Below are positions 1 through 63,189 of a stretch of 64,000 nucleotides of DNA, piece by piece. How positions within the stretch are numbered: position 1 is the stretch's first letter; every line of letters begins with the position of its first letter. A program made the position numbers and the translations under genes. Source of the stretch: Yuukianura sp. NJ FZ-2021 (taxonomy: Eukaryota); contig CM102284.1 of the NCBI GenBank assembly GCA_046563655.1, positions 4,836,001-4,900,000 on the forward strand, in the 5' to 3' direction. The notes beneath the pieces were generated by a model, which saw nothing but the letters and a program-made list of their open reading frames with translations, was not told the DNA's origin and ran no database searches.

Positions 1-378
1 AATGTAGCCGAGCTAATTGCGCATGGCAAGCAAATTGTGGGCGATCTCAATCGGACTAGACGTTTTGAAAACAAGCCTTTGATTCGTGCGACAGCTTCTG
101 ACGATTTTTCCGATTTCAATCAAAGACTCAAGGACAGAGCAGCAGCACGTCAACCGTCTAGAGCGGCTTACATTCCCAGGGAATCGTTTCAACCGCAGCC
201 TATTGGGCCTATTTCAGTCCCACCCGAAAATTCTGGGGCAAGTCAATTCTTTCCAAAGCAAGACTCGGAGGCTCAAACAGCTCCAATTTTTTCTGCTATG
301 ACTCCAAAACAACCGGAAATTTCCTATTCGCGCCCAGACCGCGCTCCTAATATTCCGCCAAACTCCGACGGAAGGTAG
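1..378 (+). CDS. gag: Gag C-terminal part (partial, frame open from base 1)
   Basis: Frame 1 is open from 1 to TAG 376-378, has a Pro/Ser-rich tail and overlaps the pol frame, which opens after TAA 348-350. Confidence 0.75.
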   Translation, partial: NVAELIAHGKQIVGDLNRTRRFENKPLIRATASDDFSDFNQRLKDRAAARQPSRAAYIPRESFQPQPIGPISVPPENSGASQFFPKQDSEAQTAPIFSAMTPKQPEISYSRPDRAPNIPPNSDGR

Positions 379-3300
379 GACGGGAGCTCCCTATCCTTCC
401 GAAATCGGATTTTTCCAAAGCAGCTCCCACAATCAAAATCAAAATTCGGAATTCCTTTTATTTTGCTCATTTGGATTCGCTATCAACTTATTCGCACATT
501 TCCGCTTCTTTAGCAAAAGAACTCGGAATGATCATTCACAAAGGGCAAATTCAACTAACGATTGGTGACTCAAGTACAATCAGTACTTCCGGAACAGGAG
601 AGTTACATTTCAAAATTTATACGGACGATTACATTCACACAGTCCACATTCTCCAGTCTCCGCCTTTTCCAATTATTCTCGGACTTGACTTTATTCGGAA
701 ATATCATTTGGTCCCGGATTTTCATGACGGTACATTTTCTATTCTCGGAACTAAAACAAGAGGTCGACTCGAATACTATTTTCAAAACCGTGAGTACTTA
801 TGTGCATTGCTCGGTCTCAGTGACGCGCAAACTGAGGAACTGAAGCATTTGACCGATAGTTTTCCAGCACTTTTCTCTTCTCAGTTAGGCCAAACTGATT
901 GGGTGAAGTGTGAGTTGACACCGTCTCCCGGACCTCCTATTTCCTCTAAACCCTATCCTGTTAGTCCTTTCAAGCGACAGCTCATTTCAGACAACATTTC
1001 GGAAATGTTGAAATTGGGCGTCATTGAACCCTCTGATTCTGAGTGGGCCTCCCCTGTATATATGCACACTCGTGACAAAGGTCAGTCATGGAGATTTACT
1101 TTGGATTTACGGAAAGTAAATGCTCGGCTACCTCATGATCCTTTTCCTATTCCTAGATTAGATTATTTATTTCATAACTTAGGTCAAGCTAAATTTCTTT
1201 CGGTGATTGATCTTAAGAAGGGCTACTGGCAAGTGGCCATGGACCCACAGAGCGCAAAGTACACCGCTTTCATTTGTCATGAGGGTAAATTTCAATTTAC
1301 GCGCATGCCCTTTGGTTTAAAGTCGGCCCCTTCTTTATTTCAACGCCTTGTAAATAAAATTTTAGGCACAGCGCGAGGACGCTTTGCTGACGGTTACATA
1401 GACGATATAATCGTCTATTCTAGTTCCTGGAAGGAACATTTAGAGCATCTCAAATACGTTTTTGAGAGATTAAATGCGGCTGGTCTCACTGTAAATATGC
1501 AGAAATGTGAGTTCGGTAAAACTACCCTCAAGTACTTAGGGTACATTGTTTCTCCAAATGGAATTGAGAGAGATCCGGATAAGATTTCCGCTGTTTCTGA
1601 TTTTCCCAGGCCGACGACACCCAAACAAGTTCGTCAGTTTTTAGGTCTTTGTTCTTGGTATCGACAGTTTGTCGAAAAATTTTCGGAGCTCAGCGAGCCC
1701 CTGAACCGGTTATTACATAAGGATGTTCCTTTTGTTTGGTCAGACGACCAGGAATCTGCATTTTTAAGGCTCAGAGCAGCCATTTGTTCGGATGATTTGG
1801 TTTTGGCTTTCCCGGATTTTTCCAAAGAGTTTATTATTCGGACGGACGCGTCACGAGTTGGAGTATCCGCGGTTTTAGCCCAAGAAATTAACGGATTTGA
1901 GAGACCCATTGCATTTGCGAGCCGCTCTTTAAATAACGCTGAGAAGAATTACGGTTCCAGCGAAATTGAATGTGTCGGTATTTTATTTGCTTTAAAGAAA
2001 TTTGAACATTACATTGACGGTCAAAGATTTCGGCTTGAGACCGACAACAAAGCTTTGGTTTGGTTGGACAAAATGAAAGACGTAAACAGCAAGTTTACTC
2101 GTTGGGCCCTTCGTATTCAAGATTTTCAGCCCATTATTACGCATTGTCCTGGCAAACTTAACGTTGTTGCTGATGCCCTGTCACGTGCTCCCGTGGGAGA
2201 AAGTGAGGATTGTGAAGATCACCGCGAAAAATTAAATTTTCCATTAAATTGTTCTTCACCCGCCATTTTTCTTTCATTGACGCGCGAAATTTCATTGGAG
2301 ACGCTCAAAGAAGAGCAAAGTAAAGATTTAGAAGTCCAAGCACTGCTTACGGACACTGGAAAGGATTTCGTAGTCGACGACGGAATTCTTTACCGTTTGG
2401 GGAAATACTCCGGAAAGCTTCCCTTCATTCCATCATCTTTACGTTCTCAAGTTTTGAGCTATTTCCATGATAGACCGGAAGCAGGTCACATGGGCTTTCG
2501 TAAAACGCTGTACCGTCTTTTGCGTCGCGTCTTTTGGTTCGGAATGCACGAAGACATTTACAAATTTGTTCAGTCTTGCGACATTTGTCAGCGGATTAAA
2601 AATCCTACTTCTAAACCGGTTGGTCAACTTCAAAGTGTTCAAACCAGAGGTCCTTGGGACATGCTGGCTCTAGATCTGATTGGTCCCCTTACGAAAACTC
2701 AACGTCAAAATACTTTCTTGCTCGTTGTCACTGATCATTTTACAAAATGGGTAGAATTATTCCCAATTCGAGAAGCTACGGCTCCTATGATCATTAAAAA
2801 AGTCGAGCAAGAAATTTTCTGTCGTTTCGGCCGTCCTAGAGCCTTGCTAAGCGATAACGGTTCTCAATTTACTTCGGAGTTATTCAAAAAGCTTTGCAAA
2901 ACATGGAATGTCAAATTGAAGTACACCACTACTTATCATCCCCAGGCAAATATCACTGAGCGCGTAAATCGTAACGTCATTGCTATTCTTCGCGCCTACG
3001 TCGCGAGAAAACACAGCAAATGGGATGAAAATTTACCGGAAGTCGCCATGGCTTTACGCACTGCTATTTCGGATTCTACCGGTTTTAGTCCTTCTATGCT
3101 CAATTTTGGTCGTGAACTTTCGACTCCCTTTGATTTAGCGCTAGACGACTCTGACAGCGATGATTTTGCTGAGTGGACGCAGTACCAACTCACGTTGATT
3201 GAACGGCTTTTTAAAGTTTACCGTTTGGCTAGAGAGAACATAGAAAAAGCGCAAGCGTCGCAGGCTAAATACTACAACAAGCACCGTCGTTCTGATGCGT

Positions 3301-3614
3301 TTCAAATTGGCGATTTGGTACTTTTGCGTACTCATGAGAAGTCTGACAAAGCCAAGGGTTACATGAAAAAGTTCGCATTTAAGTGGGAAGGCCCTTACAT
3401 GGTTTTTGAAAAGGTTACGGATTTAGTTTATGGCCTGAAATTTTGCGATTCTGACGAGGAAATTGGTCGTCATAACATTGTGAATCTAAAACGCTACTTT
3501 TCAAGGCCAGGAACAGTCATTTCAGCGCCTTTGCCGCCTTCTAAGATCCCTAAATCAAAGCCTGAGCCTGTCATTAGCAATTACAATCTGCGCAGTCGTG
3601 GTACACTCAATTGA
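351..3614 (+). CDS. pol: Pol polyprotein (aspartic protease, RT, RNase H, integrase), probably reached by -1 frameshift
   Basis: Protease region (HLDSLST...IILGLDF), RT YIDD, RNase H TDAS, integrase HHCC (H..GHMG..CDIC), DDE core (LDL..SDNG..ER) and GPY/F motif (WEGPY). No stops or frameshifts. Confidence 0.95.
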   Translation, partial: YSAKLRRKVGRELPILPKSDFSKAAPTIKIKIRNSFYFAHLDSLSTYSHISASLAKELGMIIHKGQIQLTIGDSSTISTSGTGELHFKIYTDDYIHTVHILQSPPFPIILGLDFIRKYHLVPDFHDGTFSILGTKTRGRLEYYFQNREYLCALLGLSDAQTEELKHLTDSFPALFSSQLGQTDWVKCELTPSPGPPISSKPYPVSPFKRQLISDNISEMLKLGVIEPSDSEWASPVYMHTRDKGQSWRFTLDLRKVNARLPHDPFPIPRLDYLFHNLGQAKFLSVIDLKKGYWQVAMDPQSAKYTAFICHEGKFQFTRMPFGLKSAPSLFQRLVNKILGTARGRFADGYIDDIIVYSSSWKEHLEHLKYVFERLNAAGLTVNMQKCEFGKTTLKYLGYIVSPNGIERDPDKISAVSDFPRPTTPKQVRQFLGLCSWYRQFVEKFSELSEPLNRLLHKDVPFVWSDDQESAFLRLRAAICSDDLVLAFPDFSKEFIIRTDASRVGVSAVLAQEINGFERPIAFASRSLNNAEKNYGSSEIECVGILFALKKFEHYIDGQRFRLETDNKALVWLDKMKDVNSKFTRWALRIQDFQPIITHCPGKLNVVADALSRAPVGESEDCEDHREKLNFPLNCSSPAIFLSLTREISLETLKEEQSKDLEVQALLTDTGKDFVVDDGILYRLGKYSGKLPFIPSSLRSQVLSYFHDRPEAGHMGFRKTLYRLLRRVFWFGMHEDIYKFVQSCDICQRIKNPTSKPVGQLQSVQTRGPWDMLALDLIGPLTKTQRQNTFLLVVTDHFTKWVELFPIREATAPMIIKKVEQEIFCRFGRPRALLSDNGSQFTSELFKKLCKTWNVKLKYTTTYHPQANITERVNRNVIAILRAYVARKHSKWDENLPEVAMALRTAISDSTGFSPSMLNFGRELSTPFDLALDDSDSDDFAEWTQYQLTLIERLFKVYRLARENIEKAQASQAKYYNKHRRSDAFQIGDLVLLRTHEKSDKAKGYMKKFAFKWEGPYMVFEKVTDLVYGLKFCDSDEEIGRHNIVNLKRYFSRPGTVISAPLPPSKIPKSKPEPVISNYNLRSRGTLN

Positions 3615-47849: not shown

Positions 47850-50369
47850 ATGAAGATTTTAGGAATTCGTAAATTTTTAACCAATTTGGCATTCCTATTC
47901 TGGTAACAATAACGTCATCATCATTGAAATACTTGCACAAAGCTTTACGGATTTTCACAGACAGTTTCTTAATGTAGAATGTATTTTTTAACTTGTTAAC
48001 TTTTTTTTTTCGAAGTTTTCACAATTGGGTTGCGGATGCGAATCATCGAAATTATGAAAACTGGGACCGAATTTACAGACAAACGCAGCAAATGGACACC
48101 ATGTCGCAAACGACTTCGTCGAAATTAGAAACAAATTCCAACATGGGGACAATGATTATGAAGAAACTGGACCAAATTGAGCAGAAGATGAACGAAACAA
48201 TTACAGATGAGCAGAGAGAAAATGAACAACTAATTAAACTGCTCAGTCTTCCAGAAAAATACAACAAATTCGAACTACCACGACTAGGTAATGGTTGGGC
48301 AAAGAGTGAAAAGTCAATAATTTGAGATTTGTTAAAACTAAAGTATCAAACAGCTAAACTAAAAAGTAGGCATATTTAACACGCTTAAAAACAGTTTTCT
48401 ATCTTTAGGAAAAGTCGGAAACTTTAGCAGAGTCAAAATATCTGTGGGCGTTCGAATACGAAATATTAGAGCCATTGACGTACTCAATGAGGTAAAACAA
48501 AAAATGGAGCATTTTCAAAAGAAATTTTTCGATTCGCAATTTTTAGTTACGATTTAAGTTAAACTTTATCTTGATATTTTATAAGGAAATTGGAATGGAG
48601 CTTGATTTAGTAGCAAAATGGATAGATCAACCTATTAAAAACCATCATAAAAATTACCGCAATATGTCACATAATCTGGATTCTGGATTTCTTAAAGAAA
48701 TTTGGTGGCCAAATTTAATTTTCAGTAAGCTGAATAATTTTAGGAATCATGCATATTAAAATTTGTTTTCATATAATATAAAACTAATCTGATCCACTAT
48801 TTCATTTTTGTTAGGCAGAACTGTATCAGTTGTTCGTCCAGATTTGCATGGATCTTATTTAATTCCAAGACCAGTGCGGCTCATCATAAGTCCACGACAA
48901 GGACTAATTGAAATGTCATCAAGGTAAGCCGAGTTCAGCAAAATGAATCATTTTTTGAAAATTTTGAAAACACTTGTTTTTTTTTTAAATTTTGTTTTCG
49001 GGTTTGGTTTTTATAGAATAGTGCTCAAAATTTACTGCCCAATGAACTTTATATACTACCCAGCGGATACCCAAAGTTGCGATATTCGCCTGCGTTCCTG
49101 TTAGTCAACAATTTTGAAACAATTCTAAGTCAATTTTTTTTAAATTTCGAAAGCAAAACATGAAAAGAAAACATATTTTAATGTTAGATGCAGAAACGAC
49201 TGATGACATTGACCTCAACTGGGACCTCGTCAGTGGTTCGGGTGACCCAGTCCCACAAGCCTACTTTTCTAACAGAGGTCATCCCAACTATGATATTCAT
49301 ATGCACAATGTCACAACAGTTTACCAACAAGAAGTCAATGTCAACAACCGACGCAGTAACATAAACATAACAATAACCTCTCTTTAACATAATGTAAAAC
49401 CGCGTGACCTCTGACCTCTACGACTTTCCTTATTTTCAGGTTTAAATTTCACTTATCTGCAGTTCACTCTGTCGACACGGAGAAAGCTCAGCTTCCACAT
49501 TATGGTAAAGTGAAAGTTTTAAAAGTAGTTTGAATTTTTCGCAATTTCTTATTATTTTTTGATTAATTTGTATTATTATATATTATTAATTTTTAGCAAA
49601 CATATATACCAAGTATTTTTCTGGTGGTGATTACATGGCTGGCTTTTTTCATCCCAATTGAACTTCTGGAAGCTCGGATTGGAATCTCAATGACAATTCT
49701 TTTGACGCTAACAGCTATGTTTGGTTCAATCAAGTAGGTCCTATGACTTTTGACCTTTTGAACATTGAAATTGACCTTTGACCTATTTTCTAGAGAGTAT
49801 ACACCGCCAGTGTCATACCGAAAGTCCATCGATACGTGGATGTTGACTTGCATCGTTTTTGTGTTCTTGACGCTATTTGAATTCACATTCCTCATGTACT
49901 TGAGGCACGTGAATGAGAAAGCACACGCGAAAGCTCTTGAATCAACTATTGAATCTTCCAACCAGCAGGTCTCTCGACTTTAAAAAAATAAACAAATTTA
50001 AAAAATTTCAATTCAAAACTCCACTTTTGTTTTTAGATTGAAAAAGAAAGTGTTGACGACACGGATAAATTGGGATCCAACACATCTTTGATTCAGAAAT
50101 GCGCTCATGAAAGGGACGTTGAAAAATACTTGCGAATTGCCAAATTGTACAAACTCACTACGTTCATTGTGGAAACTTATGGATTTATTACAGTCTCATT
50201 TGGATTCCTGCTTTTTAGTAAAAACCAAAATTTCATTTTTAATGAAATTAAAAAAAATGTACATTTTCGTTTTTGTGTTTCAGACATAGCCTACTGGCCG
50301 TGGTTGCTAACGTGGTCCCAGTACAACTTATTTAACCCCAACTCAACATTCAATGAGCCCATCCCTTGA
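47850..50369 (+). CDS. Cys-loop ligand-gated ion channel subunit (GABA/glycine/GluCl-like clade, divergent); start uncertain
   Basis: IWWPNLIF, Cys-loop CPMNFIYYPADTQSC, TM1 QTYIPSIFLVVITWLAFFI, TM2 ARIGISMTILLTLT, PPVSY.KSIDTWM..C TM3, TM4 ending in YW. Confidence 0.9.
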
Positions 50370-55372: not shown

Positions 55373-57745
55373 GCTGGAGGAGCGTTCAGCGTTGTTGGAA
55401 ATGCTGCGTTAAAACTTCCTGTTCCAGCTGCTACAGCCTTGTTCCAAACGCTCCTCTTTTTCACCATTGTCCATTGAATATTCAGTGCCTGGAGAGAAAG
55501 TCGCTTGGAGCGACAGCTTTGTTGTACTTCAACTTTCTCCTGAGAGTGACTTTGACAATTCCGAAGAAAAATAAGCTCCAGTTCTAGACCACACGACGAC
55601 TAGGTTTTCCAATACTAAGGGAAATGCAGGAGCTCCGACGCACTCCAGGTCCACTCCAGAGTTTGATGTTTGTTAGGTTAAGTTTAGGTTGGTTAGGCCA
55701 ACCTAGCCTGTTTTTTCAGTTGTAATTTTGCAACCATTCCCCTCTCCAGTTCTGCTGGATAAATAATCAAGCTCTGCCCAAATCAACTTTCATTTCACTC
55801 CAAAGCTAAACCCATGGCTATGTAGGAGGGTGAAAGCATTTTGAATATCATGAAAAAAGCTTTTTTTAACAAAGAAATGGTTTTCTAACATCTTTTCTTT
55901 CTGAAAAATGGTTTTCATTCATTTTTTTTTAAAGTTTCCATTAGAAAAGTACGATCAACCTAAATGAAAAAGTGATGATGCGGAGAAAGCTATTCACTCT
56001 CAGCCTTGATAAACTTCTGATGACATTTCGCCAATTGACCTTTCAAAAATGGAGCACAAAAGGCGCCTTTGAGGTATTTCCACCGTTGAGTCACGGTCAC
56101 GGTGGAAAAAGCAAGCCACGGTTTTTTTTTTTTTGAAAAACTAAATGAAAATTTTAGACAACATGTTATGTCAGAGGCGATTTGAATCAGAACGGCTGTC
56201 GTCACTTCACTTTGCAACACTCTTTTACATCAAACTTTTAACAAAACTTTCAGTAAACTGCTGAAAACGAGCGTAGATTGGTGAAACTGGAGAAAGTTTT
56301 AGTCAATTACTTATTGCAACAAAGTGAAAAAAAACTTTCAGTTGAAAAATTTAAAATTTGTCGAAATTTTGGGAAAAACTGAGCCCTACTTCTGGAATCA
56401 ATCGCTTATGATGATGCCAATTTAGAAAAAAAGAACTCTATAAATATAAATTTTTTTAAAAAAGAGTTCTTAAAAAGCGTCATCTATTTTTAGCAAACCT
56501 GTGCATTTTTCTTGACAAATCAAACAATAACCATAACAAACAGCCTGGAGGTTAAAAAGTTTTAGTCATTAAGCAGATGTAGATACAACGCTTGCAAAAA
56601 TTGTGCGAAAATCTTTCTCCAAAATAATTTTATGCACAACGTAGCACATTTTCGCTAGGTGCTAAATGCCTCCAGGGCGAACCCAATCGTTATGACCATA
56701 TTCAAAGGCTGACATTTGGTTCATGTCATTTTGTTTGTTTCTCCAAGGTCAAATCGTTTCTCAGCGAGACATTTCCATCCTGTCCGCCTTGCTCGCAGTT
56801 TCTGTCTGACTGGATCTTGGCCAAGAATTCTTTACTCCACAGAAGACGAGAATAAACCATCTTCCTACTGCCCTTGTTCCTGAGAAGATCTTTGCACAAA
56901 CGCAACGCTCTACTCAAAATTTTCGACTCCTCTAATAGCCTACACTTCCATTTTCATTTTTTGTGGGCTACAAATCTTTCCTTTGGGAAAGTTATGGTAG
57001 AATGGACGATCTTTCTGCGTTAACTCCCTTCTTCCATAAAACCGAATAACAAAAGTTTCCTCCCTTGCTGTGGCCTTCAGACCTAATAGCACACCATACT
57101 AGAAACCATGGAGGGAAACGCTCCATCTTCTCCTTAATTTCTGCTTGGAATTCTGCAAAATTCTGCTATTCGTGTCGACACTCAACCTCCAGTCGCCTTG
57201 GCTTTGCTTTGCCCTGATCCTCCATCACTCCGAACTTTTTTTGGTCAACCACGCCCTTCCTTCCCACTCAGAACTGTTTTGAATCCTGAACAGTCAAGAT
57301 CTCTCAGTTTCCTTCCACGTTTCTCTTTTTAACCACCAGCGTCCTTCTGTAATCCAAAAATTCAGGGTAAGAATTTCAAATTTGATCATTCCAGGAGAAA
57401 GTGGTTAAGCTGAGAGATGATATTTTGCACAAAAACTTTCAATTTTAGGATAACCTGGATTAAATCTAGGAAAACGTCGAGATTAAGTAGCGTTTTCAGC
57501 TAAAAGTTACCTTTATTCCAAAAAATTTTGAGTAGTTTTGGTTTGCTTTAGCTTCCACTACCTTCAGCGGAATCTGAAAAATCAAACGTATTTTCTTAGC
57601 TTATTAGGCATGCATTGATTGGGTGACCTTGATCATGGTCAAGCGTTAATCCAGTTGACCTTGGCCAGGGTTTTACGAGTCAATCCAGTTATATCAACCT
57701 CACTTCTTAAAATTTTTCAGGGATTTCAATTGCAAGAAAAATAAG

Positions 57746-58624
57746 ATGGAGTGGAAAGTGAGCTTTGCTCTTTGCGTCTTCGTCGCCCTCTGGGGAGAAA
57801 GTTATGGAAACGCTGCAGATCAAATCCAGCGATTGACCGCAAGTCTCAACTTGAAAAACACACTCAGCTTTGGAGACAAGTGTAACTACGAATCGGAGCA
57901 GTCGAGACAAAAGTATATCAAGGAATACTTGGACAAGACCAAGAATATGATGGGAATGGGACCGGGAGGCCCGCCTGGTGGACCAGGAGGCCCACCCGGT
58001 GTACCCGGAGGGCAAGGGGGGCCAGGGGGATTGAATTTGGACCTCAAGAACCCCACAAACGCACAAAGTTCATTGTTCCAGCTCGCACAGCAAGGAGAAA
58101 CTGCTCTAGTGGCCGCACTGGACTCCTTGTCCAAACTGCATGGAAATCTTTGCAACACGAGTCAAAATCTGGCTTGTCTCCCCACGGGTACTTGCGGATG
58201 TGCTGAAAATGACATGTCATCGGGATTCACCGTTTCGTTTGAGCGTGAAGGAAACGCATGCGTCGTCAAAGCTGGAACCAACGCCGTTTGTATGCCAAAG
58301 GAAATGACGTCCGAGGCGATGGACACAAAAGGGGGTCCACCACCACCAATGTTTCGCAGCGCTGCTAGCATGGCCAGTGCAGTGACTTGTCCAGCATCGG
58401 AACGCTGTTTGATCAGGGATAGTGAGGATGAATGTAGCCAGGAGAAAGTCCAAAAGAAAATGGCGGCCGACATGGCAGAGCAGGCGAAATCTGGCAAGTT
58501 GGACTTTGGCAAAACCGCGGGATCGTTGATGGAAGGCCCTTGCGTCTGCGCTGGAACGAATCTTGCAGCGTCCATTTTGGTCATCATTGTTTCCACAGTT
58601 GCATGCGCGACTCGGCTGTTCTAA
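57746..58624 (+). CDS. Secreted/GPI-anchored Cys-rich protein with Gly-Pro repeat, unknown function
   Basis: Signal peptide, GPGGPP repeats, Cys-rich module (CNTSQNLAC...CGC...C) and hydrophobic C-terminal tail; single coding exon. Confidence 0.85.
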   Translation: MEWKVSFALCVFVALWGESYGNAADQIQRLTASLNLKNTLSFGDKCNYESEQSRQKYIKEYLDKTKNMMGMGPGGPPGGPGGPPGVPGGQGGPGGLNLDLKNPTNAQSSLFQLAQQGETALVAALDSLSKLHGNLCNTSQNLACLPTGTCGCAENDMSSGFTVSFEREGNACVVKAGTNAVCMPKEMTSEAMDTKGGPPPPMFRSAASMASAVTCPASERCLIRDSEDECSQEKVQKKMAADMAEQAKSGKLDFGKTAGSLMEGPCVCAGTNLAASILVIIVSTVACATRLF

Positions 58625-59960
58625 AACAAATTTAAAACAAAAGAGCTTCGTCAGATTTCTTAAAGTTACAAAAAAAATGTCGCCGACAAATTAACAATAT
58701 CGTCCTTCACTTGCCTTTCTCTACAACGTAAATTACAGGATGGTGGTAAAAGTTACAAAGAAATAAGAAGCTTTGCTTTCAAGTCTTGCGTTCTTCGTCC
58801 AGGACGTGCCATTAACCAAGTTATAAATTATAAGTTAATTGAATTCACACAAACTCCAGAGATTTTTTGTGGTAACTAACAAAATTGTTCAGAAAGAAAA
58901 TGAAAATTTTAAAATGCATGAGATATAATTTAGAAAAAAAATTGAAATTTGAAAATGTATGAGATAATTTAGAAAAAATATGAAATTAGAAAACCAATGT
59001 TAGGGGAAAATACTATATGGAATTACTAGCTTTACAAAAATTAGAAAATGTACAAAAATATAATTTAGCAATCTAAAGTTCTACGAAACATATTAGCCTT
59101 GAATGTATTTTAGCCTTGTGAAATTGAAAATGATTAAAAAATGTCATAAAAAGTTATGATGATGAGTTTTGCAAGTAAAATTTAGTATTTCGATCGCTAT
59201 TTAACGAATTTGTATTTGACTTTTGTTTCAAGGATAAATTCAGAAAATCTTACGTTGTTTCACCTTGGATTTTACTTTTTGGCACAGAAATCTAATAATT
59301 TTGAATCTAATCTTTCTGGGTTTTTGGAATTTAGACAATATTGAAGCCAAATCGATCCAAGAGTGTCTAAATTGAAATTCATTTTCAATGCCAAAAAATT
59401 TTTCGAAAGAAGAGCAGGGAATGACATAAGTTTTCAAATTGAAAAAAAATTCCAAAATTCTAGAAAGACATACTGATACTATGGAAAAAAGCAAGTTTAG
59501 TCATCATTAATACTTAACCCGCTCGCAACGCGTTTCTTGTCACGTACAAAATTCAGTGTTGTTTTTGACCAATTTTTGAACTTTACAGTTAAATGAGGTC
59601 ATTTATGGAAAAATTTCTCAAAATTGTAAATTATCAGAGCTAGTGCTATATTGGTAATCATGACTTTATTAAGTGATCAAAAACGATGAGGTCATCTCTT
59701 AAGAACTGTAGGTCCAATTTCCAATGTTTCATTCCAAATTGTTCAAAATTTTGACGCATCAAGAGTTTTTTTGATCCAAAATATTAGATTGACAATCTCA
59801 AAATTGATCATCGCCACAATCCACTATCAACAACTTCGTTAACTTCGAGGGTTTTGATTTTGATGGATATAAAACTGAAGTCAATTGTTGGAGCGTGCAC
59901 ATCAGTCAATTAATTCAAAGGTTAAAAAAATTCAGTTTTTCGAATTTTGAAAGTTCCAAA

Positions 59961-60982
59961 ATGGAAAATTTCAAAGTTTTTGTCACTGCTGTAGTCCTTG
60001 GACTAATTGCTTTGACTTGTGCCCAGTACATTGAAACTGAAATTGAAGCATACCATTTCCATACGTACATTTTTGATGTAAATCCACGTCATGTTGATGA
60101 AGCTCTTAGCTTTAGGTAACCACCAAATTTTTTGTTTAAAAAAATCGAAATTTTTTCAAGATTTTGAAAAGTTGTATTTCATTTAACTGTTTTATGTAAT
60201 GTAGGAAAAAGGCACGAGAACTTATTAACGACGGAACATTTGCAGAATGCTCACTGAATCAGGTACTAGCTTGAAAAATTAAATTTTGAAATTTGAACTT
60301 TTGAATTCGAAATTTTGAAAAACAAGGTTGTAAACGTAGCGTTGCTTTTCCTTTTGCAGATTTATGTAGGGTGGGATGGTCCTCGTAAGTTGAAAATTTT
60401 TATGAAATTTTTGAAAAATTACTTTAAAAAAACTAACTCAAACTTATAATTTTGACATTTTCAAACGCAGATCCATTTTCGCAATACGAAATGTGTTGCA
60501 ACAAAACGTCCTACGCAGCAGCCTATTCGTTCCACACGCAAAACCACGGAAACTTGTCTGTGCTGGTCCATCCTCTAACAATTTACGACTTGGAGGACCA
60601 TATTACAGGAGCCACTTGGATGGGACAACCTGTCCCACTTGACACAGAGTGCCCATGCCTCTACCCTGTAAGTACTTTGACCTTTGACCTCCCTAGCATT
60701 TGAGTCTTTTCATCATTCCCTCCAAAGTCCAAACTGATTGTTTTGATTAATCTCGATTCTAGGAAATTCCGAAACCCCGCCCATGTCCAGGTAAGAACTA
60801 AAGCTACAAAAACTTTAACAAAAATTGCTTTTTTTTTTTAAATTAAATTTTCAAAATTTTCAGTTTACCCGGAATATTCTGACGAAATGCCAACCTCCCC
60901 CGAAGACATTTTGCCACCACTTCCAGGAACGGAAGATTACAGGAACTTGACGGGCTTCAATATGTTGAGCGGATTTTACTAA
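59961..60982 (+). CDS. Secreted DOPA 4,5-dioxygenase family (DOPA_dioxygen/DodA-type) protein, 6 exons
   Basis: Exons 59961-60115, 60205-60262, 60360-60384, 60471-60667, 60763-60790, 60864-60982. Motifs YHFHTY, GPHPFSQYE, NHGNLSVLVHPLT, EDH, ATWMGQPVPLD; N-terminal signal peptide. Confidence 0.85.
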
Positions 60983-61707
60983 CAAGAACAAAAACTAAAA
61001 TTAAAATTGTGATTGAATTGTCAAAATTTCCAATTTCCGAAAATTACATACAAGCAAAACCGATTTTCCTAAGAGACGTCAATCGAACAACGTCAAGTAA
61101 ATCTTTACACAGAATCGAAATTACAAGTTTTCACTCAAATTCTCTATCTCCGTGTACTTAGTGAATCTTCCATGTTGATTCAAAACTTAAAGTTGATCAC
61201 GACCTCAACGCTGACCTTGCAGTTGAGATTGTCGTTCGTACATGAAATGAAACCACTCAAAAAGATATTGTGAGACTGCAAAAATAGCGTTACGTCGTTA
61301 ACCCTTAATTAACCACTACTAAAAAATTCCTTATCTGACAATATCACTTCCAAGAACAAGTTTCAACTTCTCAAAAGTAGCAAATACTCAACTTAAGATG
61401 CGTCAGTTCAGTCAGTTCAGTGCAATTTTGAAGTTCATCTGCAGTTTTACCACCCTAATAAACAGCAGCACGACACTACGAGCAATTGGCACTTCAAGTG
61501 GGTATCCGGTGAAAATTTGCAAATTACAAAAAAAGCTACTTTATGCTTGTCTTTCAGGATTTTTCGTATTTTTATGCTAGATAAGCCTCGATTGGATGAC
61601 CTTGGGCAGTTTCACGGGTCACACCCAGTTGACATCAACTTAACTACTAACTTATTTTCACTCTGGCTTAACTTTTTTTCAGGGATTTCAACTGCAATAA
61701 AAATAAG

Positions 61708-62684
61708 ATGGAGTGGAAAGTGAGCTTTGCTCTTTACGTCTTCGTCGCACTCTGGGGAGAAAGTTATGGAAACGCTGCAGATCAAATCCAGCGATTGACC
61801 GGAAGTATCAATTTGAAAAACACGCTCAACTTTGGAGACAAGTGTAACTACCAATCGGAGCAGTCGAGACAAAAGTACATCAAAGAATACTGGGACAAGA
61901 CCAAGAATATGATGGGAATGGGACCGGGAGGCCCGCCTGGTGGACCAGGAGGCCCACCCGGTGTACCCGGAGGGACTTTACGGGGAAAATTTCCTCAAGA
62001 ACCCCACAAACGCACAAAGTTCATTGTTCCAGCTCGCACAGGAAGCTGAAACTACCTTAGTGTCCACATTGGACTTCTTGTCCAAATTACAAGGAAATCT
62101 TTGCAACACGAGTCAAAATCTGGCTTGTCTTCCCGAGGGTACTTGCGGATGTGCTGAAAATGACATGTCATCGGGCTACACCGTTTCGTTTGAGCGTGAA
62201 GGAAACGCATGCGTCGTCAAAGCTGGAACCAACGCTGTTTGTATGTCAAAGGAAATGATGCCCAAAGCGACACAAGGCGGGGGTCCACCACCACCAATGT
62301 TTCGCAACGCTGCTAGCGTCGATAGTGCGGTGACTTGTCCAGCATCGGAACGCTGTTTGATGAAGGACAGTATGGATGAATGTAGCAAGGAGAAAGTCCA
62401 AAAGAAAATTGCGGCCGACATTGCAGAACAGTTGAAATCTGGCAAGTTAAATTTGGGATCGCTGATGGAAGGCCCTTGCGTCTGCGCTGGAACGAATCAA
62501 GGTTACTATTGTAACGTCTTCTTTAAAGTGAACTTGGGTGAATTCATTTTTGAAAATTTTGCTTAAAAATTTAGAGCTCGAGTTACTGCCCAACCTCTTA
62601 AAGACCAACCTTGGAACGAATCTTGCAGCGTCCATTTTGGTCATCACCGTTTCCACAGTGGTCGGCGTGATTCGGCGGTTTTAG
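61708..62684 (+). pseudogene. Disrupted duplicate of the 57746-58624 gene
   Basis: Highly similar to copy 1, but a 30-nt segment is replaced by 19 nt near 61975-61993 (frameshift) and there is a 116-bp insertion with TSD at 62498-62613. Confidence 0.75.
62498..62613. mobile_element. Short non-autonomous DNA transposon (MITE), hAT- or P-like
   Basis: Absent from the paralog; termini CAAGGTT...AACCTTG are inverted; 8-bp TSD GAACGAAT at 62490-62497 and 62614-62621. Confidence 0.8.
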
Positions 62685-63189
62685 AACACAAAAAGCTTTC
62701 GTAATTTCTAACCTACGAAAAATGTTGCCGTGAATCTCGTGGACGTGAAGATGACATTAAGTAAAACAAAAAAAATACAGATGTATTAAACTAATTCACC
62801 TCCCTGTTTTTTCAAGTAAAATACACGCTAAAACTATTTGACAATGACCTAAATCTGACCTAGTTGAATTTAGCGTACGTACATGAAATCAAATCAAATC
62901 ATTTCAAACACACTTCAATCTAACATATAATACACAGTGTGTGTCCGGGTGTGACTAAAAGTCGGAATTCTGCTCACTCCTCGGATTTGTATGAGGGGTG
63001 GGAGTTTACATACATTTCTCCAAGCACTGCACTGACTTTTTCTCTCATAGGTACCAACTTCGAGCAAAAAATGAAAACACAAAAATTGGCTGCAGTAAAC
63101 CGGAATTGCATCCGCTGTATGCGGTTCTGCCAACTCGGATGCGTTTCGTTTGGACTTTAGTCTGTCAATTCGGTTACGTACGCAACAAC

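Follow-up and report, generated by a model that had tools for sequence, protein, structure and literature searches.

Enzymes of the Pfam family PF08883 (DOPA_dioxygen) are familiar from fungi and bacteria, where they act in the cytosol in pigment formation; in a tardigrade, a single bacterial-like copy has been linked to tolerance of radiation. According to the available excerpts of PMC9097196, a site of three histidines with a nearby aspartate was assigned in the Amanita muscaria enzyme DodA (AmDODA) and in the bacterial enzymes GdDODA and AcDODA, via homology to the PDB entries 2P8I and 2PEB. The same excerpts state that L-3,4-dihydroxyphenylalanine (L-DOPA) is cleaved at both the 2,3 and the 4,5 positions, that the products cyclise spontaneously to muscaflavin and betalamic acid, and that removal of the metal abolishes activity. 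Among animals, the tardigrade Hypsibius henanensis is reported to carry a horizontally acquired gene, DODA1, whose enzyme makes betalain-forming products (Li et al. 2024, as cited in the available parts of PMC13389832, PMC13263728, and PMC12669191). Analysis of a 64,000-nucleotide stretch of the springtail Yuukianura sp. NJ FZ-2021 (assembly GCA_046563655.1, contig CM102284.1, positions 4,836,001 to 4,900,000 of the forward strand), the whole of which is referred to below as the window, revealed a member of this family at 59961-60982 on the + strand. It is best read as a functional nuclear springtail gene, coding for a secreted, probably disulfide-bonded and N-glycosylated PF08883 protein of a springtail clade with a long tail (the LONG clade), which would likely act as an extracellular catechol dioxygenase (probability approximately 0.6). 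Both the LONG clade and the secreted animal-type (CCN-type) subgroup are groups defined in this analysis.

The assignment of the gene to PF08883 is secure. Indeed, exon 4 alone (65 aa) matched the Pfam profile with 55.9 bits (E 5.6e-15; profile positions 48-105 of 106), the gathering cut-off of the family being 25 bits. An 88-aa open frame of the gene scored 55.0 bits, and PF08883 was the sole Pfam match on the gene's frames; exons 1 and 6, each scored alone, gave no Pfam match, and the N-terminal half of the protein aligns to Pfam-annotated relatives. The product contains the motifs YHFHTY (residues 31-36), GPHP (78-81), LSVLVHPLT (108-116), EDH (121-123), and WMGQPVPLD (129-137). Over 56 aligned animal, fungal, oomycete, and bacterial sequences, both histidines of the HxH motif, a tyrosine, GPH, PL, DH, and a glycine were invariant, and the histidine of the HP motif was nearly so. 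All of these residues are kept in the window protein, among them His32, His34, His80, His113, Asp122, and His123 of the proposed metal site. A profile built from the LONG clade retrieved 2NYH/2P8I (E 2.3e-10) and 2PEB (E 1.1e-5) from the PDB. Similarly, an AlphaFold model of the relative P0003 (mean predicted local distance difference test (pLDDT) of 87.5, above 95 in the core; predicted template modelling score (pTM) of 0.81) had 2p8i, 2peb, and 2nyh as its top four Foldseek matches in the PDB (E 4e-9 to 1.2e-8; template modelling score of 0.77-0.79 on the target; probability 1.0), the next match having an E of 0.023. As modelled, P0003 has the small alpha/beta fold of 2NYH, 2P8I, and 2PEB. 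Its tail was placed without regular secondary structure, blocks 131-170 having a pLDDT of 84-95 and the last 20-30 residues one of about 62.

Joining the six exons gives a coding sequence of 582 nt for 193 aa, without internal stop. Exon 1 (59961..60115), placed by tblastn of springtail proteins, begins with ATG and encodes a signal-peptide-like leader (residues 1-21) and the YHFHTY motif with His32 and His34; intron 1 (60116..60204; 89 nt, phase 2) interrupts an Arg codon after the start of the first helix. Exon 2 (60205..60262; 58 nt) encodes a helix segment including Cys67 and is followed by intron 2 (60263..60359; 97 nt, phase 0). Exon 3 is a microexon (60360..60384) of only 25 nt, encoding IYVGWDGP and the first base of the His80 codon, that matches residues 67-81 of the Orchesella dallaii protein P0001; it is followed by intron 3 (60385..60470; 86 nt, phase 1). 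Exon 4 (60471..60667) holds the PF08883 core (GPHP, CCNKT, LSVLVHPLT, EDH, and WMGQPVPLD) together with the first part of the tail (ECPCLYP), and precedes intron 4 (60668..60762; 95 nt, phase 0). Exon 5 (60763..60790), a second microexon of 28 nt, encodes EIPKPRPCP plus one base, positions 60763-60789 matching residues 144-152 of P0001, and is separated by intron 5 (60791..60863; 73 nt, phase 1) from exon 6 (60864..60982), which contains the remainder of the clade-specific tail (VYPEYSDEMP ... GTEDYRNLT ... Y) and a TAA stop. All exons lie on the + strand and all introns have GT..AG borders. A tblastn comparison with P0001 matched all six exons in order, both microexons included. In addition, the metagenome locus L001 contains an uninterrupted open reading frame (ORF; 40-618) with short untranslated regions and an A-rich 3' end after AATAAA; the spliced product is identical to this ORF at 118 of 182 residues, without a gap at any junction, and exons 3 and 5 are colinear with both L001 and the genomic relative L002. 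Locus L001 may be a transcript or a copy that lacks introns; in both cases, it shows the joined reading to be the conserved protein.

The encoded protein carries the marks of an extracellular protein. The mean Kyte-Doolittle value of 9-mers in its leader reaches 3.06 (residues 4-13), and a T-C-A cleavage motif precedes Q22, so that secretion is predicted. Besides Cys20 in the leader, there are six cysteines (residues 67, 88, 89, 140, 142, and 153), and N-glycosylation sequons occur at residues 90 (NKT), 107 (NLS), and 182 (NLT). With these cysteines and as many as three usable sequons, the product resembles a protein made for the outside of the cell, probably disulfide-bonded and N-glycosylated. 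The tail is rich in proline (11 of the 34 residues 144-177), and two conserved tyrosines in it stand in acidic contexts (EYSDE and TEDY) that would suit tyrosine sulfation in the secretory pathway. A preliminary description of this locus had recognised the DOPA_dioxygen family, its His-rich motifs, a six-exon gene with exons of 25 and 28 nt, a signal peptide, extra cysteines, sequons, and a Pro-rich tail; all of these hold, the leader by hydropathy.

Compared with its microbial counterparts, the window protein is alike in its core and different around it. AmDODA, as described in the excerpts of PMC9097196, also belongs to PF08883, has a small alpha/beta core related to 2P8I and 2PEB, keeps the histidine cluster and the aspartate, and extends C-terminally beyond the bacterial core of about 120 aa. 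AmDODA was compared through other Agaricomycete homologs (34-40% identity), since it was not in the sequence set. Unlike the window protein, these fungal relatives lack the CC motif, and their tail sequences are unrelated to that of the window protein. Bacterial members, such as GdDODA and AcDODA (excerpts of PMC9097196), 2NYH/2P8I of Burkholderia xenovorans, and 2PEB of Nostoc punctiforme, have the same fold and metal-site residues, but bacterial PF08883 proteins comprise about 115-127 aa, lack the leader, cysteines, and tail, and stand on a tree branch of length 2.66. Among scorable rows of the alignment, a hydrophobic leader before the HxH motif was found in 7/7 LONG, 16/19 named animal, and 22/22 unnamed short rows, compared with 0/18 fungal, 0/2 bacterial, and 8/10 protist-like rows. 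The motif CCNx[S/T] was present in 8/9 LONG and 18/19 named animal rows, and in none of the fungal, oomycete, bacterial, or 'other' rows; the window protein has CCNKT (88-92), together with the subgroup cysteines Cys67 and Cys153. The median number of cysteines after the HxH motif was six in LONG, four in other animal rows, one in fungi, and zero in bacteria.

Homologs were searched with exon 4 as query and with two profiles; of 250 and 236 matches, the best 120 each were considered. Among these matches, the closest proteins were from springtails, followed by a shorter secreted type in springtails (Orchesella, Allacma), in the acariform mites Medioppia, Oppia, Halotydeus, and Leptotrombidium, in the fungus gnat Bradysia coprophila, and in the tardigrade Hypsibius exemplaris. 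Further down came Agaricomycetes, chytrids, Podila, Aphanomyces, Acrasis, and eukaryote-like sequences, and last the bacterial proteins of about 125 aa. The window product was 62-65% identical over its full length to five relatives of 185-196 aa, 64% identical to a second O. dallaii copy, and 59.5% identical to Folsomia candida XP_021950275.1. In a maximum-likelihood (ML) tree of 106 rows and 187 columns, chosen from 207 proteins and omitting most short fragments and most near-identical bacterial and fungal matches, the window product fell into the nine-row LONG clade (ultrafast bootstrap 100; Shimodaira-Hasegawa-like approximate likelihood ratio test (SH-aLRT) 99; stem 1.0), which had a support of 99 in a quick tree. 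All named members of this clade are springtails (O. dallaii and O. cincta in the tree); F. candida XP_021950275.1, outside the tree set, has the full LONG tail as well. Around this clade, the tree places other secreted sequences of the animal type, which come from springtails, acariform mites, Bradysia, and Hypsibius, so that the clade is nested within them, and a branch of length 0.8 (support 95/99) sets the animal-type rows apart from fungi, oomycetes, protist-like rows, and the nematode Romanomermis. The bacteria attached near Romanomermis and the protist-like rows in the quick tree and beside a Halotydeus row (79/71) in the careful tree, so that the root is unsure. Constraining the 59 animal-type rows to one clade gave a log likelihood 1.62 better than the free search (approximately unbiased test, p-AU 0.515); a single clade of secreted animal-type sequences is thus compatible with the data, which is no proof of monophyly.

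The LONG clade arose by gene duplication and gained a tail at the C-terminus, conserved, about 55 residues long, and with many Cys and Pro. Its invariant pattern consists of E-C-x-C-L-Y-P, then P-R-P-C-P-V-Y-P-x-Y-x-D, then G-T-E-D-Y, and a final Y, and the window protein carries it as ECPCLYP ... PRPCPVYP.Y.DE ... GTEDY ... Y. Also specific to LONG is GWDG directly before the PHP motif. Among the best 150 of 465 matches in a library clustered at 50% identity, the full-length P0007 and the fragments P0012, P0208, P0210, P0223, and P0315 extended past profile position 160, and P0225 extended to position 161. An atlas look-up of the tail of P0003 (residues 135-192) gave no usable match.

Three relatives deserve separate mention. 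The O. cincta protein ODN02768.1 (P0345; 1110 aa), named Endoribonuclease Dcr-1, clusters at 90% identity with the 169-aa short-type P0013, which suggests a merged gene model joining a dioxygenase to a Dicer gene in that assembly. Of two F. candida isoforms, X2 (P0022) diverges from X1 (P0346) right after CCNK and stops 11 residues later, as might result from a retained intron or an alternative exon; the window gene is not interrupted by an intron at this point. Finally, the Romanomermis culicivorax protein P0178 has a signal-like leader but a fungal-type W-C-P motif, and its long branch lies among non-animal eukaryote rows, which hints at a history separate from that of the secreted type of arthropods and tardigrades.

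Intron positions and substitution patterns bear on the age of the gene. Introns 1 and 2 occupy the same codon and phase in the window gene, in the LONG-type loci L002 and L003, and in the short-type locus L005, whereas L004 has intron 1 at the same place without intron 2. In L002 (305-1051), only introns 1 and 2 are present and the third exon continues to the stop, so that the window gene has three extra introns; intron 3 is absent from L004 too. As introns 3-5 are not common to all clade members, the microexons arise from non-shared introns; this small gene may thus be an instance of introns having been gained or lost in particular lineages. Compared with L001 and L002, the proportion of synonymous differences (pS) was 0.80-0.83, which is saturated and above the Jukes-Cantor limit, whereas that of nonsynonymous differences (pN) was 0.23-0.26 overall, 0.18-0.21 in the core, and 0.23-0.24 in the tail. 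Judged from these values, the LONG clade is old, with both core and tail under purifying selection. Shared introns, saturated synonymous sites, and a low pN together indicate an old and constrained gene and no recent import. A pseudogene reading was rejected in view of the intact frame and a pN well under pS.

By analogy with characterised family members, the protein most likely acts outside the cell, using a metal to cleave the ring of a catechol, either L-DOPA or a related compound. The leader would direct the protein to the secretory pathway and be cleaved upon export. The ferredoxin-like core would then bind a divalent metal via the conserved histidine cluster and the neighbouring aspartate, and perform extradiol cleavage, opening the ring adjacent to the diol, with L-DOPA or a related catecholamine as substrate. 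The resulting seco-DOPA-type products would cyclise non-enzymatically to yellow aldehydes, either betalamic acid or compounds of the muscaflavin type. The tail, modelled with confidence against the core and probably tethered to it by disulfides, may adjust stability, pocket, or localisation. The substrate, the product, and a physiological role in cuticle or gut catechol chemistry are, like secretion and disulfide bonds, inferred. Several points weigh against this interpretation. The splice model is based on homology; the signal peptide call consists of hydropathy (a 9-mer mean of at least 2.0 before the HxH motif) and a cleavage motif; and the fold was modelled on P0003 (65% identical, with a similar tail; 56-row alignment) instead of on the spliced window product. 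Furthermore, LONG proteins have GWDGPHP where other animal types have P-x-GPHP, beside a metal-site histidine, and the literature on springtail and arthropod DOPA dioxygenases yielded no assay of any enzyme of the secreted subgroup.

Since the invariant LONG changes lie beside a metal-site histidine, substrate or regiochemistry may differ from those of known enzymes. An active enzyme with a natural substrate other than L-DOPA, such as dopamine, N-acetyl- or N-beta-alanyl-dopamine, or dietary or humic phenolics, serving detoxification or control of sclerotisation, is accordingly conceivable but rather unlikely: the secretory leader would put the enzyme where cuticular and gut catechols occur, and AmDODA has a wide pocket and a millimolar Michaelis constant (KM) for L-DOPA (excerpts of PMC9097196), yet the characterised PF08883 enzymes in the available parts of the cited papers all act on L-DOPA. 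It is very improbable that the gene is decaying or that its product is a secreted binding or structural protein keeping the fold only. The long Pro-rich tail and the lack of an assay might suit a non-catalytic role, but every family-invariant histidine and aspartate is retained, the frame is intact, and pN lies far below pS in core and tail alike. Beyond the preferred reading as a secreted catechol dioxygenase, it may be speculated, at poor odds, that springtails, acariform mites, fungus gnats, and tardigrades, all soil microfauna, share a hitherto unrecognised system of CCN-type proteins that opens catechol rings outside the cell, spread among these animals by the intraphylum route proposed for their microbial-type terpene synthases. 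The LONG form would then use DOPA or dopamine of the cuticle or gut to make aldehydes (betalamic acid or muscaflavin-type), which would condense with amines into yellow pigments, ultraviolet screens, or cross-links. If true, hexapods would possess a chemistry resembling that of betalains or hygroaurins, distinct from that of the bacterial-like DODA1 of tardigrades.

As to its origin, the preliminary description had called the gene an old, domesticated horizontal acquisition, or else a patchily retained gene, that possibly serves pigment synthesis or catechol detoxification. Its age and domestication stand, given the shared introns, the saturated pS with low pN, and the animal neighbours, but the horizontal step was not shown. 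The phylogeny proposed as a check delivered the LONG clade and the animal-type subgroup, leaving transfer neither demonstrated nor excluded; in neither the quick nor the 106-row ML tree did a possible donor stand beside the animal clade, and no donor can be named. Among the matches considered, the named animals with the secreted type were limited to springtails, acariform mites, Bradysia, and Hypsibius, a patchy distribution that fits old transfer as well as loss. One old acquisition from a eukaryotic microbe (a fungus or protist), spread in soil microfauna and partly from animal to animal, may tentatively be put at a little under even odds. Besides the list of holders, taxa within the clade are not ordered as in the species tree: a 22-row clade (99/96) unites Bradysia, oppiid mites, Hypsibius, and short springtail forms. 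In the available part of PMC11665903, canonical terpene synthases show the same pattern of Sciaridae, Collembola, and Acariformes, intraphylum transfer from mite to gnat being proposed; this case is a parallel and no evidence for the dioxygenase gene. According to the available part of PMC5664137, PF08883 occurs only among transfer candidates in Xiphinema and Longidorus. However, besides the missing donor, old paralogy with loss could yield the same tree, only about 130 columns are informative, and many tree rows carry no host name. Vertical inheritance of a gene already present in early ecdysozoans or panarthropods, and lost many times since, is possible but on the unlikely side. All named animal holders among the matches considered are ecdysozoans, the animal-type rows can form a single clade, two intron positions are common to both paralog types, and synonymous sites are saturated; yet nearly all insects, crustaceans, spiders, and ticks are missing among the best 120 of 250 and 120 of 236 matches from a database that includes NCBI proteins, and Romanomermis has a different, fungal-like subtype. 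That this springtail received the gene recently and directly from a fungus or bacterium, or that the assembly is contaminated with microbial DNA, was rejected as extremely improbable. Although the family is mainly microbial, and the nearest non-animal matches among those considered are Agaricomycetes (34-40% identity), the gene has five spliceosomal introns and a guanine-cytosine content of 0.44 in the coding sequence compared with 0.18-0.38 in the introns (0.33-0.43 over the window), animal genes occur in the same window, Orchesella and Folsomia orthologs at 60-64% identity have the same tail, and synonymous divergence within the clade is saturated.

Around the gene, candidate signals occur on the + strand whose roles are putative. 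A candidate TATA box (TATAAA, 59868..59873) lies about 36 nt upstream of a candidate initiator (TCAGT, 59902..59906), itself 55 nt upstream of the ATG, and a second TCAGT occurs at 59932; these roles were assigned by general arthropod core-promoter consensus. A candidate polyadenylation signal (ATTAAA, 61000..61005) follows 18 nt past the stop. The gene content of the window is animal-like, including an exon of a Cys-loop channel (49762-49980, +; Neur_chan_memb, 34.7 bits), a Ty3/gypsy-type pol ORF (351-3614, +) with RVT_1, RNase H, and integrase domains, and a weak F-box ORF. The dioxygenase gene stands between two tandem + strand copies of another gene (57659-58621 and 61913-62563), whose protein has a signal-like start, a Gly/Pro-rich stretch, many cysteines, and a hydrophobic C-terminus resembling a glycosylphosphatidylinositol (GPI) anchor or membrane segment; neither copy gave a Pfam match. 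The repeated DNA of these copies (57713-58628 and 61675-62688) is 88-96% identical and about 3.95 kb apart. A copying of the dioxygenase gene by this duplication was rejected, as the repeated DNA excludes it, and tblastn within the 64-kb window found no second PF08883 copy.

With respect to known dioxygenases, plant-type DODA, a LigB-type enzyme of family PF02900, has the same reported L-DOPA reaction as PF08883 enzymes, but an unrelated fold and family compared with the window protein; indeed, no LigB-family Pfam domain was matched on the gene's frames. The closest annotated counterparts are the springtail orthologs O. cincta ODM92146.1, O. dallaii CAL8117826.1 and CAL8074717.1, and F. candida XP_021950275.1, which comprise 191-210 aa, share the ECPCLYP ... 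PRPCPVYP ... GTEDY tail, are 55-64% identical to the window product, and carry the automatic name 'DOPA 4,5-dioxygenase'; literature searches for springtail or arthropod DOPA dioxygenase found no publication on them. The short secreted paralog type shares with the window protein the signal peptide, CCNx[S/T], conserved cysteines, and intron positions 1 and 2. It differs in its length of 145-190 aa, its 37-48% identity, its four instead of six cysteines after HxH, and in lacking both the tail and the insertion-like GWDG motif. What is added here to orthologs already public under automatic names is the springtail-only long-tailed clade, the shared introns, the age and constraint, and the separation from tardigrade DODA1.

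This last comparison qualifies the statement in the preliminary description that betalain-type chemistry is not a standard animal pathway, which needs the precedent of tardigrade DODA1, although that enzyme is of another PF08883 subtype. Like the window gene, DODA1 is an animal gene, its aligned part showing GPHP ... LSVLVH ... DH ... WLG..LPLD. In the available part of the BLAST tables of PMC13389832 (supplement 1), its coding sequence measures 387 nt, the CC motif is missing from the aligned part, OQV14965.1 ranks first among H. exemplaris proteins (73.75% over 80 residues), and a CCN-type Richtersius sequence is only 43.75% identical over 64 residues. In the present tree, H. exemplaris is represented by a CCN-type protein from another gene, OQV16348.1. 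Judged from these published tables, DODA1 standing outside the tree, DODA1 appears to be another PF08883 subtype, and these supplement tables gave no indication that the window gene is its ortholog. The tardigrade matches to DODA1 in the same supplement fall into three visibly different PF08883 subtypes, namely Cys-less DODA1-like, CCN-type (Richtersius), and fungus-like with W-C-P/W-V-P (Paramacrobiotus), and BLAST counts of 'DODA1 presence' may therefore mix paralog types; caution is needed, as animal 'DODA' matches are not all orthologs of tardigrade DODA1. After the terpene synthases, this is a second gene family with the Sciaridae/Collembola/Acariformes pattern, which bears on the frequency of gene movement among soil animals. 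Compared with the cytosolic enzymes of fungi and bacteria and with the bacterial-like tardigrade copy, springtails thus carry an old, constrained, structurally elaborated, and, as predicted, secreted branch of PF08883, with sister forms in mites, fungus gnats, and tardigrades, that is a candidate for extracellular catechol ring-opening in the arthropod cuticle or gut.

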